DNA from: an uncultured bacterium
GTDB taxonomy: Bacteria > Auribacterota > JACPWU01
NCBI GenBank assembly: GCA_964640155.1
Contig: CAZXEQ010000002.1
Coordinates: 450,001 to 482,000 of the forward strand
Length of the DNA: 32,000 nucleotides
Reading direction: 5' to 3'
The position numbers and the translations under genes are program-made. A model generated the notes under the pieces. The model was given only the letters and a program-made list of their open reading frames with translations. It was not told the DNA's origin and did not search any database. Shown here piece by piece: positions 525 through 29,005 of this stretch; position 1 is the stretch's first letter, and each line of letters opens with the position of its first letter.

Positions 525-610
525 GTAAGATTCTCCTGAGCGACCTCTCTATTTTAAGGCAATAGGGGGTGAATTTGCAACATAAGATCATTCTTAATAA
601 ATTGGAGAGT

Positions 611-745
611 CTCGTATATAAAAGTGTATTCTTTTGAAAAGTGGCGGGTCCTGCCACTCGTCAGCCCCATCGTGCTCACAAAAAGTTGCGCTCGACGGGG
701 CGCCCCGCCGAGTGTCACCCGCATCTATAAAGGACACACTTTTTT
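611..745 (-). repeat. Family-1 GC-rich inverted-repeat element, copy A (MITE/REP-like, unclassified)
   Basis: The reverse complement aligns along its full length with 5127-5266. It has 14-nt terminal inverted repeats (AAAAGTGTGTCCTT/AAGGACACACTTTT type) and a central G/C hairpin CTCGGCGGGGCGCCCCGTCGAG. Confidence 0.8.
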
Positions 746-753
746 GAACACGA

Positions 754-1941
754 TCAAATCGGATGTACTTCAAAGAAAAGACATTTAAGGTATTGTGTTT
801 CTGGGATATTGGGAAGGATAGGATGATCAAGCCCTTGTGTCCCACGATGAATTAGCTTTAATATTTTTTTCGCATCACGAGCTGCATCCAAAAGAATATC
901 CTCAAATAGAGATTCTTGAATATGATGAGAGCAGGAAGCGCTGATCAGGACCCCTCCAGCGCGAAGCATTTTCATGGCTCTTAAATTGATTTCCTTGTAT
1001 CCGGCCAATGCTCCCTCAATTGAATCTTTTCTTTTGGTGAAAGAAGGAGGATCCAAAATAATCATGTCGAACTTTTTCCCTTCTCGATCAAATTGCTTTA
1101 GAAAATCAAATCCGTTTCCCAGTAAACCTTCCCATCGTGTCTCAACATGATTCAGGGCTGCGCTTTTCTGAGCGATTGCGAGTGCTTCTTCAGAAATATC
1201 AATGCTCAATACTTTTTTTGCTCCTCCCTTCAAACAAGACATAGAAAAGCCACCTGTATAAGAAAAGCAATCCAAGACTTCCTTGTTTTTTGAAAGCGAA
1301 GAAGCCATTTGTCTATTGTCTCTCTGATCCAAATAAAAACCTGTTTTATGCCCATGAAAAACGTCCACCCAAAAATGAATTCCATTTTCTTCTATTTCTA
1401 AAAATTCTGGCGGAGAATTTCCATCCAAACACCCCTGAATTAAAGGAAGACCTTCTAAAGCGCGTGCTTGGAAATCATTTCTTTCATAAATTCCTTTGGG
1501 TTGGAAAATACTTTTTAGTATTTCCACAACCAGGGATTTATGGATATCCATCCCGAGCGTGGTTGTTTGGATAATCAAATAATCTTGATATTGATCTACG
1601 ATAAGACCTGGAAGTCCATCTGATTCACTGTTCACCCAGCGTAGACTTGAAGCTGAAGGAAGATAGGTTTTTCGCCATCGGAGGGCTTCTTTAATGCGTT
1701 TTTCAAAAAAAAGCACATTGATTGCTTCATCTTGTTGGCGAGTCAATAATCTAATAGAAATGGTGGAGAGAGGATTAAACCAACCGATGCCTACCCATTT
1801 CTTTTGATCCGTATAAATGGCAACAGGTTCTTCAGATCGGATTTCTTTATCTACATATTTAATTTGAGACTTGTAAATCCAAGGGTGTCCGGCTTTGACA
1901 CGATCAAAGCCTCTTTTGGAATCGACGATGATTTTTTTCAT
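754..1941 (-). CDS. rlmI: Class I SAM-dependent rRNA (cytosine-C5) methyltransferase, RlmI/YwbD-like (PUA-like N-terminus plus methyltransferase domain)
   Basis: 395-aa ORF. Motifs: GHPWIY N-terminus, DGLPGLIVDQY, GHKTGFYLDQRDNR, VLDCFSYTGGFS (SAM-binding loop) and FDMIILDPPSF. Confidence 0.8.
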   Translation of the reverse strand: MKKIIVDSKRGFDRVKAGHPWIYKSQIKYVDKEIRSEEPVAIYTDQKKWVGIGWFNPLSTISIRLLTRQQDEAINVLFFEKRIKEALRWRKTYLPSASSLRWVNSESDGLPGLIVDQYQDYLIIQTTTLGMDIHKSLVVEILKSIFQPKGIYERNDFQARALEGLPLIQGCLDGNSPPEFLEIEENGIHFWVDVFHGHKTGFYLDQRDNRQMASSLSKNKEVLDCFSYTGGFSMSCLKGGAKKVLSIDISEEALAIAQKSAALNHVETRWEGLLGNGFDFLKQFDREGKKFDMIILDPPSFTKRKDSIEGALAGYKEINLRAMKMLRAGGVLISASCSHHIQESLFEDILLDAARDAKKILKLIHRGTQGLDHPILPNIPETQYLKCLFFEVHPI

Positions 1942-4969: not shown

Positions 4970-5126
4970 CATGATAGAGTTCAACTTTAAATTTTTTGTA
5001 GGGACTGCAATTGGAGTTGCGCTAGGAATTCTTTATTCCAAATTCATTCATCATTTCTTCCTTTATTCCTTCTAAATTGTAGAGGACTCCTAAGTATTTT
5101 CTTCCCGCATCGTGTAATCCATGTGC

Positions 5127-5266
5127 AAAAAAGTGTAGCCTTTACAGATACGGGTGACACTCGACGGGGGAGAGGCCCCGCCGCGCGCAATTTTTCATGA
5201 GCACGGTGGGGCCTGACGGGTGGCAGGACCCGTTTCTTACTTGAAGGACACACTTTTATATACGAG
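5127..5266 (+). repeat. Family-1 GC-rich inverted-repeat element, copy B
   Basis: Aligns with the reverse complement of 611-745 at about 80% identity by eye, with long identical blocks. Terminal repeats are AAAAGTGTAGCCTT...AAGGACACACTTTT. Confidence 0.8.
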
Positions 5267-5294
5267 ATCAGTGTGTACAACGATTTTTCTAAGA

Positions 5295-13189: not shown

Positions 13190-14851
13190 TTACTGCTTTA
13201 AATTCTCTGATGCTTTTTCTTGAATGATTTGCTCAACCTTGTTATCTGTCTCCAGAGTATTTAATACATCTGGACTAAGCTCTTGAAAATCCTTATTAAA
13301 TTCTAGTTCTTCTGGCCAAGGTCTTGGATCAATATCATCAGGAAATACAGGAGGGCGATGGTAGATGATCCAAGGAAAGAATAAACTCTCTGCTGGAGAA
13401 GTTCTCGGGAAAAGCGTTTCACCAAAGATAATATATAACCAAGCAGTATCATTTCGAGAAGAAGAAGTAGAAGTAGGAGTATAACTAAAATTAAAACCAT
13501 CAAACCCAATAGCGATATCATCAATACCACCGTTATTGATATCTCCTACAAAACTTAATGCTCCAGTAACAACATCTCGCGTATCTCCGATAAAACGAAC
13601 AGCATACGTGGTATTAATATCTACAGTTGATCCCCAGCTGGATCTTCTCCCAAGTAGTAAATGTGTTCTACTTGGCTGCAATGGTGTACCTGGATGTACT
13701 GGCATGGATATTGAAAACAAAAGATCTGAGATTCCATCTCCATTGATATCTCCGTACCCTGAGAACACCATAGATGTTGAACCAGATGTACTAATAAATG
13801 AAGTGTTTACTCTAACTCTTGATAAATCTGAGGCTCCTTGAATAAGATCATAAAGTGCAGAGGGTCGACTGTCCCCAAATTCTCTAAGACGCTCTATTAA
13901 AAAATCAATGTATCCATCTCCATTAACATCGCCAACTTTTAACGGACCTTCAAAGGTATCACCATTGTTATGATGTGAAGATAATGCGATGGGAGAGTCA
14001 AAGTTTCCAAGTCTATTACCTGCAAATATATTAGTAATAGTTGTTGTGCCAGAACTTAGAGAAGGATATGTTACTACGACGATTTCTTCGAACCCATCAT
14101 GGTTCATATCTCCCACAAACTGAGGCTTTCCCATTAAAAATCCTGTAGGAGGAGTCCAAGTACGGTTGGCATCAGATGCGAGAATAGAAGATGGAAATCT
14201 TTCAGATCTTCCTAAAAACAAGTACATGTGAGTAGGGCGAGGATATCCTCGATAAATCAAAAGATCTTTATAGCCATCACCATTAAAATTACCGATACTA
14301 ACGCTCATACTGGGAGATGAATCTGGTAGCCCGGTATAGGTGGTATCAGCTAACATGTCTGCAGCGCCGCTGTGCCAAATTGTTTTTCCATAGAATATAT
14401 AAATTTTACCTCGTATAATTCCACCTGACTGATAAAGAGGCGCTGTCACTGCAAAGTCACTGATGTTGTCTCCATTAAGATCACCTGCAGAAATGATTTG
14501 ACCAAAATCACCAGCTAAAATACCTATATCCAATCTGTGCTCTGAGCGAATGACGACATTGGCATTATCCATTGTCAAAGAACGCATCCAAGACATAGAA
14601 TCTCTTTTCCCAAAATAAATTGCAATTCCACTACCGCCAGTCTCTCCTGATTGTGTGGCTGCGGCAAAATCAGGAATCCTATCCCCATTGATATCGCCTA
14701 ATGGGGTTACGAGTTTTCCAAAAGCGACTACATTTTCTGATAGGTCAATTCTTACAGGAGCATTCTCAAGTCGAAAATCAACCGCTTTAGATGAACTCAC
14801 TTGAAACAAGCTCAAAACAAATAAAATAACTAGCAATTTAATTGTTTTCAT
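13190..14851 (-). CDS. Secreted FG-GAP (integrin-alpha-like beta-propeller) repeat protein
   Basis: 553-aa ORF with signal peptide MKTIKLLVILFVLSLFQVSSSKA. Seven Ca-binding-type repeats: GDINGDRIPDF, GDLNGDNISDF, GNFNGDGYKDL, GDMNHDGFEEI, GDVNGDGYIDF, GDINGDGISDL, GDINNGGIDDI. Confidence 0.85.
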   Translation of the reverse strand: MKTIKLLVILFVLSLFQVSSSKAVDFRLENAPVRIDLSENVVAFGKLVTPLGDINGDRIPDFAAATQSGETGGSGIAIYFGKRDSMSWMRSLTMDNANVVIRSEHRLDIGILAGDFGQIISAGDLNGDNISDFAVTAPLYQSGGIIRGKIYIFYGKTIWHSGAADMLADTTYTGLPDSSPSMSVSIGNFNGDGYKDLLIYRGYPRPTHMYLFLGRSERFPSSILASDANRTWTPPTGFLMGKPQFVGDMNHDGFEEIVVVTYPSLSSGTTTITNIFAGNRLGNFDSPIALSSHHNNGDTFEGPLKVGDVNGDGYIDFLIERLREFGDSRPSALYDLIQGASDLSRVRVNTSFISTSGSTSMVFSGYGDINGDGISDLLFSISMPVHPGTPLQPSRTHLLLGRRSSWGSTVDINTTYAVRFIGDTRDVVTGALSFVGDINNGGIDDIAIGFDGFNFSYTPTSTSSSRNDTAWLYIIFGETLFPRTSPAESLFFPWIIYHRPPVFPDDIDPRPWPEELEFNKDFQELSPDVLNTLETDNKVEQIIQEKASENLKQ

Positions 14852-15374
14852 TTTTAATCTCTCTTTTCTCCCCCGAATCTTAATAGTTTATATACCACAT
14901 GAAATTTACTTACCCAAATTTTTTCTGTCTAAACTAATCCAATCCTCTGTATTAGAAAGGCTTAAAATTTTGTAGTTATTTATCACCAATACATATTCTA
15001 TTTAGCCATAAACTTATGGGCCAAGCTTTGCTTCCTAGGGTATGGGGGCAACCTTTTGGAAGAAAACTTGGCCCTTGTAAAAAATCAAAACTTTAAAATG
15101 TAAATTCCTTGAAACTATTTCTTATCTGTCAAATTCCAAGACTTACTTTCTTTGCGATCCATCACATTTAAAGCAGTAAACAGTATTCCAAAAAAAACCA
15201 TCAAATCACCCGGTATCATATTTTTCCCTTTCATTCTTTGACTGCTAATAAAGCATCTTTTATGCCAACATTTTTAGAAAAGCTTTAATATGTTCTTGTG
15301 CAATAAGATATGTCATTTCATGAAGTGCATAAAGGAAGGTTGTTTTTGAATTTTGTTTCGAAACGGAACTTTAT

Positions 15375-15403
15375 TTGACACATTTTTAAAAATCTTTTAT
15401 AGT
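15375..15403 (+). promoter_or_regulatory. Near-consensus promoter TTGACA-17 nt-TATAGT
   Basis: -35 at 15375-15380, -10 at 15398-15403, 17 nt upstream of the ATG at 15421. Confidence 0.5.
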
Positions 15404-15420
15404 GGTCTTGAGGAAACAAA

Positions 15421-15660
15421 ATGAACAGAAAATCACTCTTGATTGGTTTGGGTTTTGACGCAAAGGATAAACATGTGCGTATCACTCGCGGTGAGAACTT
15501 CCAGCTTTATGGAGGTTCAGAAAAGACACATGCCTATATGCAGGAGAAAGCTATTTCCTTTAATGAAGAACTTACCAAAAGACAGAAAACCCTTGAAGAT
15601 ATCAGTCGCGAAGAGTTTATTGATATTGCCCATGATATCGGATTGAAGAATAGGAAGTAG
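15421..15660 (+). CDS. Small conserved hypothetical protein (79 aa)
   Basis: ORF MNRKSLLIGLGFDAKDKHVRITRGENFQLYGGSEKTHAYMQEKAISFNEEL..., with a strong promoter upstream and a hairpin downstream. The overlapping +2-frame ORF 15443-15646 is disregarded. Confidence 0.6.
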   Translation: MNRKSLLIGLGFDAKDKHVRITRGENFQLYGGSEKTHAYMQEKAISFNEELTKRQKTLEDISREEFIDIAHDIGLKNRK

Positions 15661-15694
15661 TGTGATGAAACCATCTTATATTTTTTCATCACAC
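15660..15694. terminator. Hairpin between convergent genes (candidate bidirectional terminator)
   Basis: GTGTGATGAAA-loop-TTTCATCACAC, an 11-bp perfect stem, with a T-run inside the 3' arm region. Confidence 0.5.
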
Positions 15695-15714
15695 TAACGA
15701 TCACAATAAATAAT

Positions 15715-18118: not shown

Positions 18119-18246
18119 GAAAATCTCCTTAACATCCTATCTGCCTGAGTGTTAACTATACTAGGGGGATTCAGGGATTACAATGAATCCATGCTCCGGA
18201 AAAAGAAGCAAAGCATGAAGTATTTCCTAAAAGAATAAAATTATTT

Positions 18247-18275
18247 TGACATTCAAATCATGGAATGGTATAGTT
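18247..18275 (+). promoter_or_regulatory. Near-consensus promoter TTGACA-17 nt-TATAGT for the csp transcript
   Basis: -35 at 18247-18252 and -10 at 18270-18275. This predicts a leader of about 175 nt. Confidence 0.55.
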
Positions 18276-18379
18276 AACCAGATTTGAGATTTATTTTTAA
18301 GGAGCAGACTGCTTAAGAGTCTTTTAAGCGGCTGAAGAATAGTTTGAAGAGTAATGTATTTTACAAAAATTTTTTGTTT

Positions 18380-18423
18380 AAACCGCATGGATCTATATCG
18401 ATGGGATCTAGTGCGGTTTTTTT
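18380..18423 (+). terminator. Intrinsic-terminator-like hairpin plus U7 inside the csp 5' leader (candidate attenuator)
   Basis: AAACCGCATGGATC-loop-GATCTAGTGCGGTTTTTTT, about 12 bp with one bulge and one G-U. It lies 36 nt upstream of the GTG start. Confidence 0.5.
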
Positions 18424-18458
18424 ATGATTAATCATCGAGATAATCAAGGAGGTTTCAA

Positions 18459-18665
18459 GTGGCTCGTGGTAAAGTAAAATGGTTTAGCGACAAGAAGGGT
18501 TTTGGTTTTATTGCGAAAGATGATGGAGGAGATGTTTTCGTTCATCATTCTGCAATTCAAGGTGCAGGCTTTAAGACATTAGCTGAAGGCCAAGAAGTCG
18601 AATTTGAAGTTGTCGACGGAGAAAAAGGTCTTCAAGCTCGTAACGTCGTTAAAGTCGGAAAATAG
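18459..18665 (+). CDS. csp: Cold-shock domain protein (CspA family)
   Basis: 68 aa with a GTG start and AAGGAGG 6 nt upstream. RNP1/RNP2 motifs are KGFGFI and VFVHHS. Confidence 0.9.
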
Positions 18666-18685
18666 TAGTATCTATTTTCTTTAAG

Positions 18686-18746
18686 AAAAGGCCTGTTGTG
18701 CCAGCCCGATTTTCAAAATTTGGGTTTGTGCCAATAGGCCTTTTTT
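18686..18746 (+). terminator. Intrinsic terminator after csp
   Basis: Long composite hairpin AAAAGGCCTGTTG...CAATAGGCCTTTT with an inner CCCGATTTT/AAATTTGGG helix, followed by T6. Confidence 0.6.
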
Positions 18747-18798
18747 GTCAACATTCATATCTATTTGGATCTAATATTTTTTAGAAAAAGAGGTTTTT

Positions 18799-23134: not shown

Positions 23135-23917
23135 TTATACTCTTTCAAGAAATCCTGTCAAGGGACTAGAGGCTTGAGCAATGACTTGGGTGGATGCAAG
23201 GCCAGATTCATAAGCGAGTCTACCGGCTTCAACTCCTAATTTAAAAGCTTTTGCCATTTGAATAGGATCTTGCGCAGTTGCAATGGCAGTATTAATGAGG
23301 ACTGCATCGGCTCCCATTTCCATTGCTTCGGCGGCGTCGGAAGGAGCGCCTAATCCGGCATCGATAACGACAGGAACAATGGCTTGTTCAATGATGATTT
23401 GAAGTGCTTCTTTTGTTTTAATCCCTTGATTGGATCCAATCGGAGATCCTAAAGGCATGACAGTGGCTGTTCCTACTTCGGCTAATCTTTTCGCTAGAAT
23501 GGGATCTGCATTGATATAAGGAAGGACAATAAATCCTTCTTTGACTAAAATTTCAGCTGCTTTGAGCGTTTCAATGGGGTCAGGTAAAAGATAGCGAGGA
23601 TCGGGTGTAACTTCGAGTTTAATCCAATTTGAAATTTCTGCAGTACGAGCTAAACGAGCAAGTCGAACAGCTTCTTCAGCTGTTTGTGCGCCTGAAGTAT
23701 TAGGAAGAAGCTGATATTTTTTCGAATCAATGAAATCTAAAATGTTTTCATGCGGTTTAGTTAAATCGACACGACGAAGGGCAACAGTGACCAGTTCAGT
23801 CCCTGAAGCTTCTAAGGCTTGAGACATGATTTTCCCAGAAGCAAATTTCCCAGTTCCAAGTAAAAGTCTAGAAGCAAAATTTTTTCCTGCAATGGTTAAG
23901 AGATGTTCAGAGCTCAT
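23135..23917 (-). CDS. thiG: Thiazole synthase ThiG
   Basis: 260-aa ORF with [13 protein letters not shown] (Schiff-base Lys), [13 protein letters not shown] and [21 protein letters not shown]. Confidence 0.92.
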
Positions 23918-23940
23918 GAAGTCTATCCTTTAAAAGGCTT

Positions 23941-23969
23941 AATATACGCTTGAGTACAGGCATTGTCAA
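23941..23969 (-). promoter_or_regulatory. Putative promoter TTGACA-17 nt-TATATT for thiGHS
   Basis: On the minus strand: TTGACA (23964-23969), a 17-nt spacer and TATATT (23941-23946). Only about 15-20 nt of leader, containing AAAGGA, precedes the ATG at 23917. Confidence 0.5.
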
Positions 23970-24018
23970 TGTTGTGAGGAATAGAGTTTTATCCTGTCGA
24001 TAGACATATCATACATTT

Positions 24019-24444
24019 GAATTGTCCAATAGAGTGTTTATCAAGAAAGGGTCCTGCCCAACGAATCATGATTTACGATCTTCTCTCGTACGCATTCCAG
24101 CGACCGTAAAGAGATAATATTTAGTTTTCGTTTGTTAAAGCAGGAGATGAGTTTCGAAGAGGGGTGTCTTTTCCTTCGTTGCTTACACTCGCGTGCGATC
24201 GCTCATCATTAGGATTCGTTGGTCACCCTCATTTATTTTTATGAATTGTTCAACGGAGTGTGAAGACCATTGGAAATCGAGTGAGCGCGGACCCCGATTG
24301 ATCGGGGGAACGAGATTTCCGTTGAGTTAGTTTCCCTCGCAGGGGGAAACTAACGTGTCTGAACGCTCTGTTGGACGATTCATCCATACGAGACAGTCTA
24401 AGACGCTAGAGTGAGTGATGAAAGTTGTGCAGGACCCTTTTTCT
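24019..24444 (+). repeat. Composite GC-rich structured region built from family-1-like and family-2 repeat modules (possible large structured RNA or nested MITEs)
   Basis: Outer 12-bp inverted repeat AAAGGGTCCTGC (24046-24057) / GCAGGACCCTTT (24429-24440). It encloses a 165-nt hairpin domain (closing stem 24058-24072 / 24205-24222) and the family-2 element 24243-24381. No credible ORF is present. Confidence 0.6.
24243..24381 (+). repeat. Family-2 structured element, copy C
   Basis: 25-bp closing helix (24243-24267 / 24357-24381) around a core homologous to 28884-28982. Shared hairpins are CCCCGAT..ATCGGGG and GTTTCCC..GGGAAAC. Confidence 0.7.
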
Positions 24445-24458
24445 ATGAACAATGGTCA

Positions 24459-25235
24459 TTACTGGGTGTTCAGATCTACCCTTAAAGCCTTTTCAAATTC
24501 AAGGCGAACGGTGTTCGTAAGTTTATCAAATTCATTCATTTGAAAAACAGAAGTATCAATGGGGGGAAGCACTCGAAGAGAGCCAGAAACTTTGGCGCTG
24601 AAAATCCAATCTCCTTTGGGGATGGCGTCTCTTGTTCCTGTGATAACAATGGGAAGAATCGGTCTCTTCTCTTTGAGGGCCAACTTGAAAGCCCCATATT
24701 GGAAGAGATTCATTTCATTTGTATGGCTTCGTGTCCCTTCAGGAAAGAAGATGACAGACATGCCTGCTCTGAGATATTCTGCTGCTTCACGATAAATTTT
24801 CTTGATGCTTCCATAATTACCTCGTTCAAGTTGAATATGTTTGATGAGTCTTAAGCACCATCCAACCAGCGGGAGTTTAAAGAGATCGCTTTTGGCAACC
24901 CATTTAAACTGCATTTTTGTTTTGTATAGGACAATGATGTCGGCCAGGCTTTGATGATTTGCGACCACAACATAAGTTTCTTTGTGATCAATATTCTCGA
25001 GCCCTGTGACTTTTAGTTTCCAATAAGGATTTAATCTGATAATGGTGCTGGCCCACCAATAACATTGTTGGTGGGTTACTCTTTTTTGTTTGTCGAAGGG
25101 GCATAAAATGATGGTCAGAAAGAGTACAACAAGGAACAAAATGAATGTCGTAAGAACAAAAAGGGACCAAATAATAAGGGATAACAGTCCCTCTTTGAAT
25201 CTGGGTTTTCTTTTCCCTTCTACTTCAGTAGACAT
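24459..25235 (-). CDS. plsC: 1-acyl-sn-glycerol-3-phosphate acyltransferase
   Basis: 258-aa ORF with an N-terminal TM segment and the acyltransferase motifs NHQSLADI (HxxxxD) and FPEGTRS. Confidence 0.85.
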   Translation of the reverse strand: MSTEVEGKRKPRFKEGLLSLIIWSLFVLTTFILFLVVLFLTIILCPFDKQKRVTHQQCYWWASTIIRLNPYWKLKVTGLENIDHKETYVVVANHQSLADIIVLYKTKMQFKWVAKSDLFKLPLVGWCLRLIKHIQLERGNYGSIKKIYREAAEYLRAGMSVIFFPEGTRSHTNEMNLFQYGAFKLALKEKRPILPIVITGTRDAIPKGDWIFSAKVSGSLRVLPPIDTSVFQMNEFDKLTNTVRLEFEKALRVDLNTQ

Positions 25236-28855: not shown

Positions 28856-28864
28856 AGCTAAAAG

Positions 28865-29001
28865 AAGAAGGATTTATTTTTAGGACCGTTGATGAGGCTT
28901 GTGCTCATGGTCCCCGATATTCATCGGGGAAACAAGCCGAATCACCGAGCGAAGTTCCATCGGTGGGGGAACTGAGCGTGTCCGAAAAATAAATCCTTCT
29001 T
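28865..29001 (+). repeat. Family-2 structured element, copy D (fills the gap between convergent genes)
   Basis: 22-bp closing helix AAGAAGGATTTATTTTTAGGAC / GTCCGAAAAATAAATCCTTCTT around a GC-rich core homologous to copy C. Confidence 0.7.
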
Positions 29002-29005
29002 GCTA

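Follow-up and report, generated by a model that had tools for sequence, protein, structure and literature searches.

Does the gap between plsC and thiG in the genome of this uncultured bacterium hold one large structured RNA, or is it a place where small repeats have come together? The question arises in a 32,000-nucleotide stretch of chromosomal DNA with housekeeping genes (38.5% GC; hereafter the window), in which a first-pass annotation made from the letters alone had drawn the region 24019-24444 as one coherent nested multi-helix architecture and had taken it for either a pile-up of related repeat modules or a large structured RNA that shares modules with them. On the evidence presented here, the gap is probably a cluster of small, non-coding, palindromic repeats of the MITE type and not one RNA gene, and the repeat families that make it up appear to be undescribed. 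The features on which the argument turns are collected in Table 1.

Table 1. Positions in the window of the plsC-thiG gap, its component segments and the related repeats.
Feature	Position	Strand	Remarks
Family-1 copy 1	608-755	+	9-bp direct repeats 599-607 AAATTGGAG / 756-764 AAATCGGAT
Family-1 copy 2	5117-5268	minus	9-bp direct repeats 5269-77 / 5108-16, TACACACTG / TACACGATG on the element strand
thiG	23135-23917	minus	followed by thiH and thiS
plsC-thiG gap	23918-24458		between two minus-strand genes
Promoter-like site for thiG	23941-23969	minus	TTGACA-17-TATATT, 11/12; unique sequence; consensus scan
Arm a1 (GAATTGTCCAATAGAGTGT)	24019-24037	+	direct repeat of a2, 16/19; complementary to a3, 16 Watson-Crick + 3 G.U
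Family-1-like left end (left arm of outer inverted repeat)	24035-24076	+	local alignment; GGGTCCTGCC at 24049-58
Domain 1	24058-24222		15+10-bp closing inverted repeat 24058-72 / 24205-22 around a 132-nt interior; position of the family-1 P3/P4 core
Family-1-like right end	24222-24242	+	GTCACCC-T-CAT-T-TAT...; without the terminal AAAGGACACAC block of family-1
Family-2 copy 1 (domain 2)	24243-24381	+	a2 24243-61; three-way-junction core 24262-24362; a3 24363-81
Hairpins of family-2 copy 1	A 24292-24307; B 24327-53	+	within the core
Linker	24382-24409		unstructured; CATACGAGA at 24385-93
Inverted second copy of family-1-like left end (right arm of outer helix)	24410-24451	minus	ends 8 nt from plsC stop codon; no GTCACCC partner
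plsC	24459-25235	minus	PlsC-type acyltransferase gene
Family-2 copy 2	28865-29001	+	stands alone; copy-1 core fold; 17-bp closing stem unrelated in sequence

The gap has no credible ORF and holds a thiG promoter candidate

The block contains 45% GC, compared with 42% in thiG, 40% in plsC and 26-37% in other intergenic DNA, so that the earlier description of the gap as much more GC-rich than its flanks is right in comparison with other intergenic DNA, but against the neighbouring genes the difference is modest. The claim that the gap has no credible ORF was borne out: the longest ORF is 45 aa and corresponds to no database protein, and a protein search with the block translated in six frames brought up no relative. 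Exact look-up of ten small ORFs lying over the repeats likewise found none of them in the protein collection. No transposase gene is encoded in the 32-kb window. Among relatives, synteny around the orthologous plsC-thiG spacer is lost at 75-76% identity, and the relative at 86% is represented by an 815-bp contig.

At the thiG end of the gap, a near-consensus sigma-70-like promoter ends only 24 nt from the thiG start codon; since this promoter-like site sits between the repeat block and thiG, the block would lie outside the thiG leader. The leader gave no Rfam match to the TPP riboswitch (RF00059) even at E ≤ 10, and a thiamine biosynthesis operon without a detectable TPP riboswitch is unusual. 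At the other end, 8 nt separate the edge of the block from the stop codon of plsC. The sequence after the outer stem is TTTTTCT on the plus strand and TTTCTT on the minus strand. A terminator consensus scan, whose stem and loop limits do not suit a 400-nt hairpin, called nothing inside the block, and a consensus scan for plus-strand promoter-like sites found none in the region.

Elsewhere in the window, two other gaps (14852-15714, 863 nt; 18119-18798, 680 nt) have no ORF longer than ~80 aa, no Rfam match at the gathering score and no copy of a repeat family. The direct repeats at multiples of 45 nt at 13719-14698 fall within a gene for an FG-GAP repeat protein and are protein-repeat periodicity, not a DNA element.

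The fold signal of the block comes from inverted repeats and the family-2 core

The helices of the nested drawing are all present in the DNA at the places given for them (outer helix 24046-57 / 24429-40; closing stem of domain 1 24058-72 / 24205-22), and the same is true of the family-2 element (24243-24381) and of the 47-nt linker (24382-24428). Folding 24019-24444 with RNAfold returned essentially the same nested drawing on the plus strand, with a minimum free energy of -154.9 kcal/mol (shuffles: -117.8 ± 6.2 kcal/mol; z -6.0). This structure, together with the G.U pairs that favour the plus strand in domain 2, speaks for a single large non-coding RNA of ~400 nt, transcribed from the plus strand across 24019-24444 and sharing modules with the repeats. 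Against such an RNA, the minus strand folds nearly as well relative to its shuffles (z -5.6), and the signal is unevenly spread over the parts of the block. The family-2 element is the strongest (z -9.3 on plus, -4.0 on minus), with its core alone at z -3.9 and -3.8, respectively, and domain 1 with its closing stem reaches z -2.6 on plus and -3.9 on minus. The 132-nt interior of domain 1 (24073-24204) folds as expected by chance (z +0.19 on plus, -0.91 on minus), and so does the 3' linker (z +0.54). The inner helices proposed for domain 1 (CGATC/GATCG, GTACGC/GCGTGC and CGAAG/CTTCG) lie in that interior and are thus at chance level themselves. What remains of the nested architecture, and of the fold signal of the block, is three long inverted repeats and the family-2 core.

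The outer helix and domain 1 resemble family-1 ends

The outer inverted repeat was 28 nt at 82% by a repeat finder and 42 nt by local alignment (score 37; shuffles 17.3 ± 3.0), and the 42-nt arm sequence has the form TGTTYAT..AAAGGGTCCTGCMCAAC..TCAT. Its left arm, 24035-24076, aligns with the left end of family-1 copy 2 (score 32; shuffles 14.5 ± 2.8; none of 500 shuffles reached 32), and 24222-24242 aligns with the family-1 right end (score 25; shuffles 12.8 ± 2.3; none of 500 reached 25), so that the likeness of the domain-1 edges to family-1 ends, noted in the first reading, is significant on both sides. The motif GGGTCCTGC of the outer helix is found in the 32-kb window at 646 (+), 5223 (-), 24049 (+) and 24429 (-) only, where ~0.24 occurrences are expected; as the first-pass annotation had said, it thus also occurs inside both family-1 copies, at 646 and 5223. 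Three of the four occurrences have GTCACCC downstream on the same strand (646>714, 24049>24222 and 5223>5152), and the fourth, at 24429 (-), has no such partner downstream. By these alignments, the outer helix is a 42-nt family-1-like left end present in two inverted copies.

In domain 1, the family-1 clamp (GGGTCCTGCC ... GTCACCC) encloses an interior unrelated to family-1. In the clamp of domain 1, GGGU and ACCC are paired and CCUGCC and GUC are unpaired; the variable stem that follows the clamp is CAACGAAUC/GAUUCGUUG in domain 1 as against CACUCG/CGAGUG in family-1. No second copy of the domain-1 interior was retrieved, and its multi-copy status comes solely from the assembly break points described below.

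The 19-nt arm is present three times in the block, as a1, as the direct repeat a2 and as the inverted repeat a3. Pairing between a1 and a3 is as good as that between a2 and a3, and it crosses the proposed outer helix. The last 7 nt of a1 (AGAGTGT) are similar to AAAGTGT of the family-1 left ends, and the CATACGAGA of the linker is the reverse complement of the 8-mer TCTCGTAT that starts both family-1 copies. For the block as a whole, the best candidate target duplication was TCATACATT at 24009 with TCATCCATA at 24380, a 7/9 match that is expected by chance given the positional freedom.

Segments that recur two to three times in both orientations, with pairings that exclude one another, suggest adjacent or nested repeat insertions and rearrangements rather than a single folded RNA, and all of the well-folding parts of the block being repeat-derived argues in the same direction. 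A single large RNA also has to contend with an outer helix that is a duplicated repeat end, with a family-2 element that exists alone elsewhere, with an a1-a3 pairing in conflict with the nested model, and with the lack of a plus-strand promoter-like site in the region, of an Rfam relative and of a homologous block in the collections searched. We consider it very improbable.

Family-1 behaves as a mobile element

Family-1 is a non-coding element of 148-152 nt with terminal inverted repeats AAAAGTGT.../...ACACTTTT. Each of the two copies in the window is flanked by 9-bp direct repeats that are 7/9 identical and stand at the same offsets from the AAAAGTGT/ACACTTTT arms, and these matching offsets set the limits of the element as listed in Table 1. 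The six-frame translations of family-1 and of family-2 copy 2, used as protein queries, gave one match, P0121, a 733-aa class A penicillin-binding protein (PBP) encoded outside the window on the 501,885-bp contig to which the window belongs. P0121 carries family-1 in frame, containing ...DKSVSFTDAGDTRRGAPSRATFSEHVGADEWQDPPLFKGPHFY..., an open reverse-strand frame of the element. When 1.84 billion representative proteins were searched and the homologues aligned, this 52-aa linker insert was missing from five homologues, including P0122 (79% identical), which comes from a Candidatus Auribacterota MAG (gene at 727-2772 of contig L018) and has the empty site ACA CAA CAA AAT GTA TTA. In P0121, T-Q-N-V precedes the insert and H-Q-N-I follows it; set against the empty P0122 DNA (CAA AAT GTA), the QNV/QNI residues indicate a 9-bp duplication of CAAAATGTA at the insert.

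This MAG, 'Candidatus Auribacterota bacterium SZ_szas25bin.51' (JAYRIK01), is the nearest relative identified and shares family-1 as well as the PBP ortholog, which is 79% identical. It has three family-1 copies (L008 ~538-676; L011 ~1710-1834; L018 613-713, just upstream of the PBP gene), whose core is ~90% conserved with the window copies and whose outer arms differ, without the AAAAGTGT/ACACTTTT ends. Across five DNA copies, the ~90% conserved core has 27 predicted pairs, of which three are compensatory. A scan of a genome contig collection with the family-1 core pattern gave two real matches, in one Auribacterota MAG, and four chance matches. The known copies are therefore three on the contig of the window and three in JAYRIK01, with one orthologous site seen both filled and empty. 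The 9-bp target duplication and the presence or absence of the element at an orthologous site in two related genomes show family-1 to be mobile. The copies of family-1 do not agree in their outermost 11-12 nt, which is unusual for DDE-type elements.

Resemblances of the family-1 core to Y RNA, SRP RNA and HDV-like RNA were considered and none fits; there was no Rfam match. The listed GTG start (5220) of a 333-aa epimerase ORF falls within family-1 copy 2. Residue 39 is the first that the Pfam match covers, and translation probably starts downstream of the element.

Family-2 keeps its fold between two copies with different closing stems

Family-2 elements are 137-139 nt long, with closing stems of 17-19 bp that differ between the two copies. 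The copies are ~67% alike in the core, where 29 of 29 pairs are common to both, eight being compensatory and none broken; the closing stems are unrelated between the copies, and both are fully paired. The two conserved hairpins are CCCCGAT..ATCGGGG and GTTYCC..GGGGGAAC. Copy 2 fills nearly the whole 150-nt gap (28856-29005) between the stop codons of two convergent genes, one for a 1131-aa DUF7910 protein and one for a chlorite-dismutase-family protein. Such a convergent-gene gap is the expected place for a two-way terminator. A hammerhead-like UGAUGAG...CGAA in copy 2 was rejected, as it forms a symmetric internal loop, is missing in copy 1 and has no Rfam support.

Copy 1 folds to -75.0 kcal/mol on the plus strand and to -48.6 kcal/mol on the minus strand, a difference of 26 kcal/mol in favour of plus. 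On the plus strand, G.U pairs occupy all four non-Watson-Crick positions of its closing stem as well as the three positions at which a1 departs from perfect complementarity to a3, and all five arm differences keep the pairing on that strand; the strand-specific G-U asymmetry pointed out in the first reading of the block is thus real for the closing stem of family-2. Selection on an RNA of the plus strand, or on single-stranded DNA, could account for it. A neutral route is an alternative: all of the differences are C>T or A>G on the plus strand, which is enriched in G and T (GC skew of the window +0.075; skew at third codon positions +0.28 for genes on the plus strand and +0.09 for those on the minus strand).

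A covariance model found no further family-2 copy in 81 kb, and a three-motif family-2 pattern had a single match in metagenome contigs, a chance match inside a coding region. For the copy-1 subtype, no second copy was retrieved, and its multi-copy status, like that of the domain-1 interior, comes solely from the assembly break points. Family-2 is the least MITE-like part of the block.

These properties bear on the idea that the repeat modules are functional folded units, above all the family-2 three-way junction and perhaps the family-1 core, with the block being their juxtaposition and not a remnant of selfish DNA; bidirectional terminators or insulators, small RNA genes and single-strand DNA recognition sites are candidate functions. 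The idea draws on the 29 shared core pairs of family-2 with their eight compensatory changes and no broken pair, on the fully paired but unrelated stems, on the exact fit of copy 2 to its convergent-gene gap and on the better plus-strand fold of copy 1. It also draws on the ~90% conservation of the family-1 core, with its three compensatory pairs, between genomes in which the PBP orthologs share only 79% identity, and on outer stems that are flanked by A-runs and T-runs, as two-way terminators are. However, with only two family-2 copies, compensation is inseparable from the independent birth of perfect palindromes, and the covariance model supplied no other copy within the 81 kb; insertion of family-1 into a coding gene, with duplication of the target, is what mobile DNA does; the consensus scan called no terminator in the block; and a G/T-rich plus strand would alone favour G.U pairs on that strand. 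On balance, we regard functional units as unlikely. A more specific proposal is that family-2 is an undescribed structured RNA or single-stranded DNA element, a three-way junction of which the fold and not the sequence is kept, that the family-1 clamp (GGGUCCUGCC / GUCACCC) is likewise a conserved recognition module, and that the plsC-thiG block is a functional assembly, e.g., a two-way terminator or insulator made from domesticated repeats; this we regard as quite unlikely.

The closing stem of family-2 copy 1 also invites a comparison with integron-type attC recombination sites, as its left arm has GTTCAAC (RYYYAAC) and its right arm GTTGGAC (GTTRRRY), in the R'' and R' positions (24243-24261 and 24363-24381). 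Copy 2 is without these motifs, the stem has no extrahelical bases, and the window lacks both an integrase and a gene order resembling cassettes, with housekeeping genes as neighbours; moreover, at about the 1% level a degenerate 7-mer can be expected to turn up by chance in an inverted repeat of 19 bp. The attC-like motifs are probably a coincidence, and it is extremely improbable that copy 1 is an attC site or the remnant of one.

Short-read assemblies break inside the block

The exact PlsC protein is encoded on the 501,885-bp contig and on short Logan contigs. All four short-read contigs that encode the exact ThiG or PlsC protein, from three samples, end inside the block: those reaching in from thiG at 24077 and 24107, and those from plsC at 24355 (two samples). 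The short-read contig covering the interval from family-1 copy 1 to copy 2 stops within each of the two, at 714 and 5204, and a 21-kb contig passes unbroken through family-2 copy 2. Such breaks would be expected if stretches of at least 30 nt in the block and in family-1, but not in family-2 copy 2, were shared with other loci; the evidence is indirect, since strain variation also breaks contigs.

Wider searches added no relative of the block. Logan contigs extended the genome sequence by 3.9 kb and brought no new copy, blastn of the block against plasmids and phages gave no match, and four scans of viral contigs returned nothing or chance matches only; no homologous block was found in any collection searched (genome, metagenome and viral contigs; plasmids and phages). 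Rfam 15 had no match at the gathering score in the window, and the gap and family-1 produced only noise (E above 3).

A cluster of MITE-like repeats

Between the two possibilities raised at the outset, the evidence favours the pile-up and not the single RNA: the modules stand separately elsewhere (family-2 alone at 28865-29001; family-1 alone at 608-755 and 5117-5268 and three times in JAYRIK01), segments recur within the block, and family-1 is insertion-polymorphic with target duplications. The elements also have the build of MITEs. They are small (family-1, 148-152 nt; family-2, 137-139 nt; block, ~430 nt) and contain no ORF longer than 45 aa; inverted repeats bound the block (28-42 nt), family-1 (its arms) and family-2 (its stems, which differ between copies); target duplications accompany family-1 at the two window sites and at the PBP site; and the 52-aa insert in P0121, with the frame open, is an in-frame insertion of the kind known from Rickettsia palindromic elements (RPE).

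Read as a cluster of MITE-like repeats, the block would begin on the left with a family-1-like element, made up of a left end with GGGTCCTGCC, a long hairpin and a right end with GTCACCC. A family-2 element would adjoin this right end or be inserted at it, followed by the short linker and by one more family-1-like left end, solitary and inverted; pairing on paper between the inverted-repeat ends would yield the nested drawing. We infer that the elements may have been moved in trans by a transposase making 9-bp staggered cuts, and that the block may have been built up step by step, through insertion or rearrangement, at a single permissive site between the plsC stop codon and the thiG promoter. 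The only likely effect would be on plsC read-through transcripts, which would end in very stable hairpins with U-rich flanks; a terminator or stabiliser effect of the block on plsC transcripts is plausible.

Several observations count against a MITE cluster. The different family-2 stems, with eight compensatory and no broken pairs, are what one would sooner expect from selection on a folded single strand than from terminal repeats bound by a transposase. In addition, all five arm differences keep plus-strand pairing, no significant target duplication flanks the block, family-1 varies in its outermost 11-12 nt, and the window contains no transposase.

The closest parallels are found among MITE-type repeats of bacteria. 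RPE are palindromic, non-coding elements of ~150 bp found between genes and, in frame, inside genes (PMC10969869). Family-1 in P0121 is also in frame, with the frame open through the element, but only one such case is known for family-1; it differs further in its host phylum (a relative of a Candidatus Auribacterota MAG) and in its clear 9-bp target duplications, and no relationship to RPE in sequence was seen. The BOX, RUP and SPRITE repeats of Streptococcus pneumoniae are clustered in intergenic DNA, insert into one another and form very stable predicted hairpins, some of them terminator-like (PMC10969869). The plsC-thiG block likewise bunches several small repeat families with stable predicted hairpins, whereas its sequences are unrelated to these and the modular boxA-B-C organisation was not seen in it. 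QMITE1/2 of Coxiella burnetii have direct repeats of 7-9 bp and terminal repeats of 23-29 bp (PMC10969869), and the present elements resemble them and classical MITEs such as Correia and ERIC in being small and non-coding, in having a transcript that folds strongly, and in their terminal inverted repeats (20-30 bp) and direct repeats (7-9 bp) (PMC10969869). In contrast to QMITE, Correia and ERIC, family-1 is conserved in its inner clamp and core and not in its outermost ends, and the closing stems of family-2 are wholly unlike between copies.

Recognizing the block as a repeat cluster keeps it from being mistaken for a large non-coding RNA. It also brings out two families of small repeats, apparently undescribed, in an uncultivated and little-studied relative of Candidatus Auribacterota. 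One of them, family-1, duplicates 9 bp and can sit in frame in a PBP gene, as RPE do in genes. Short-read assemblies of this organism break up at the repeat elements, a point of importance for MAG quality. Should further copies of family-2 show its fold-conserving pattern too, this family would be a candidate for a new structured element.
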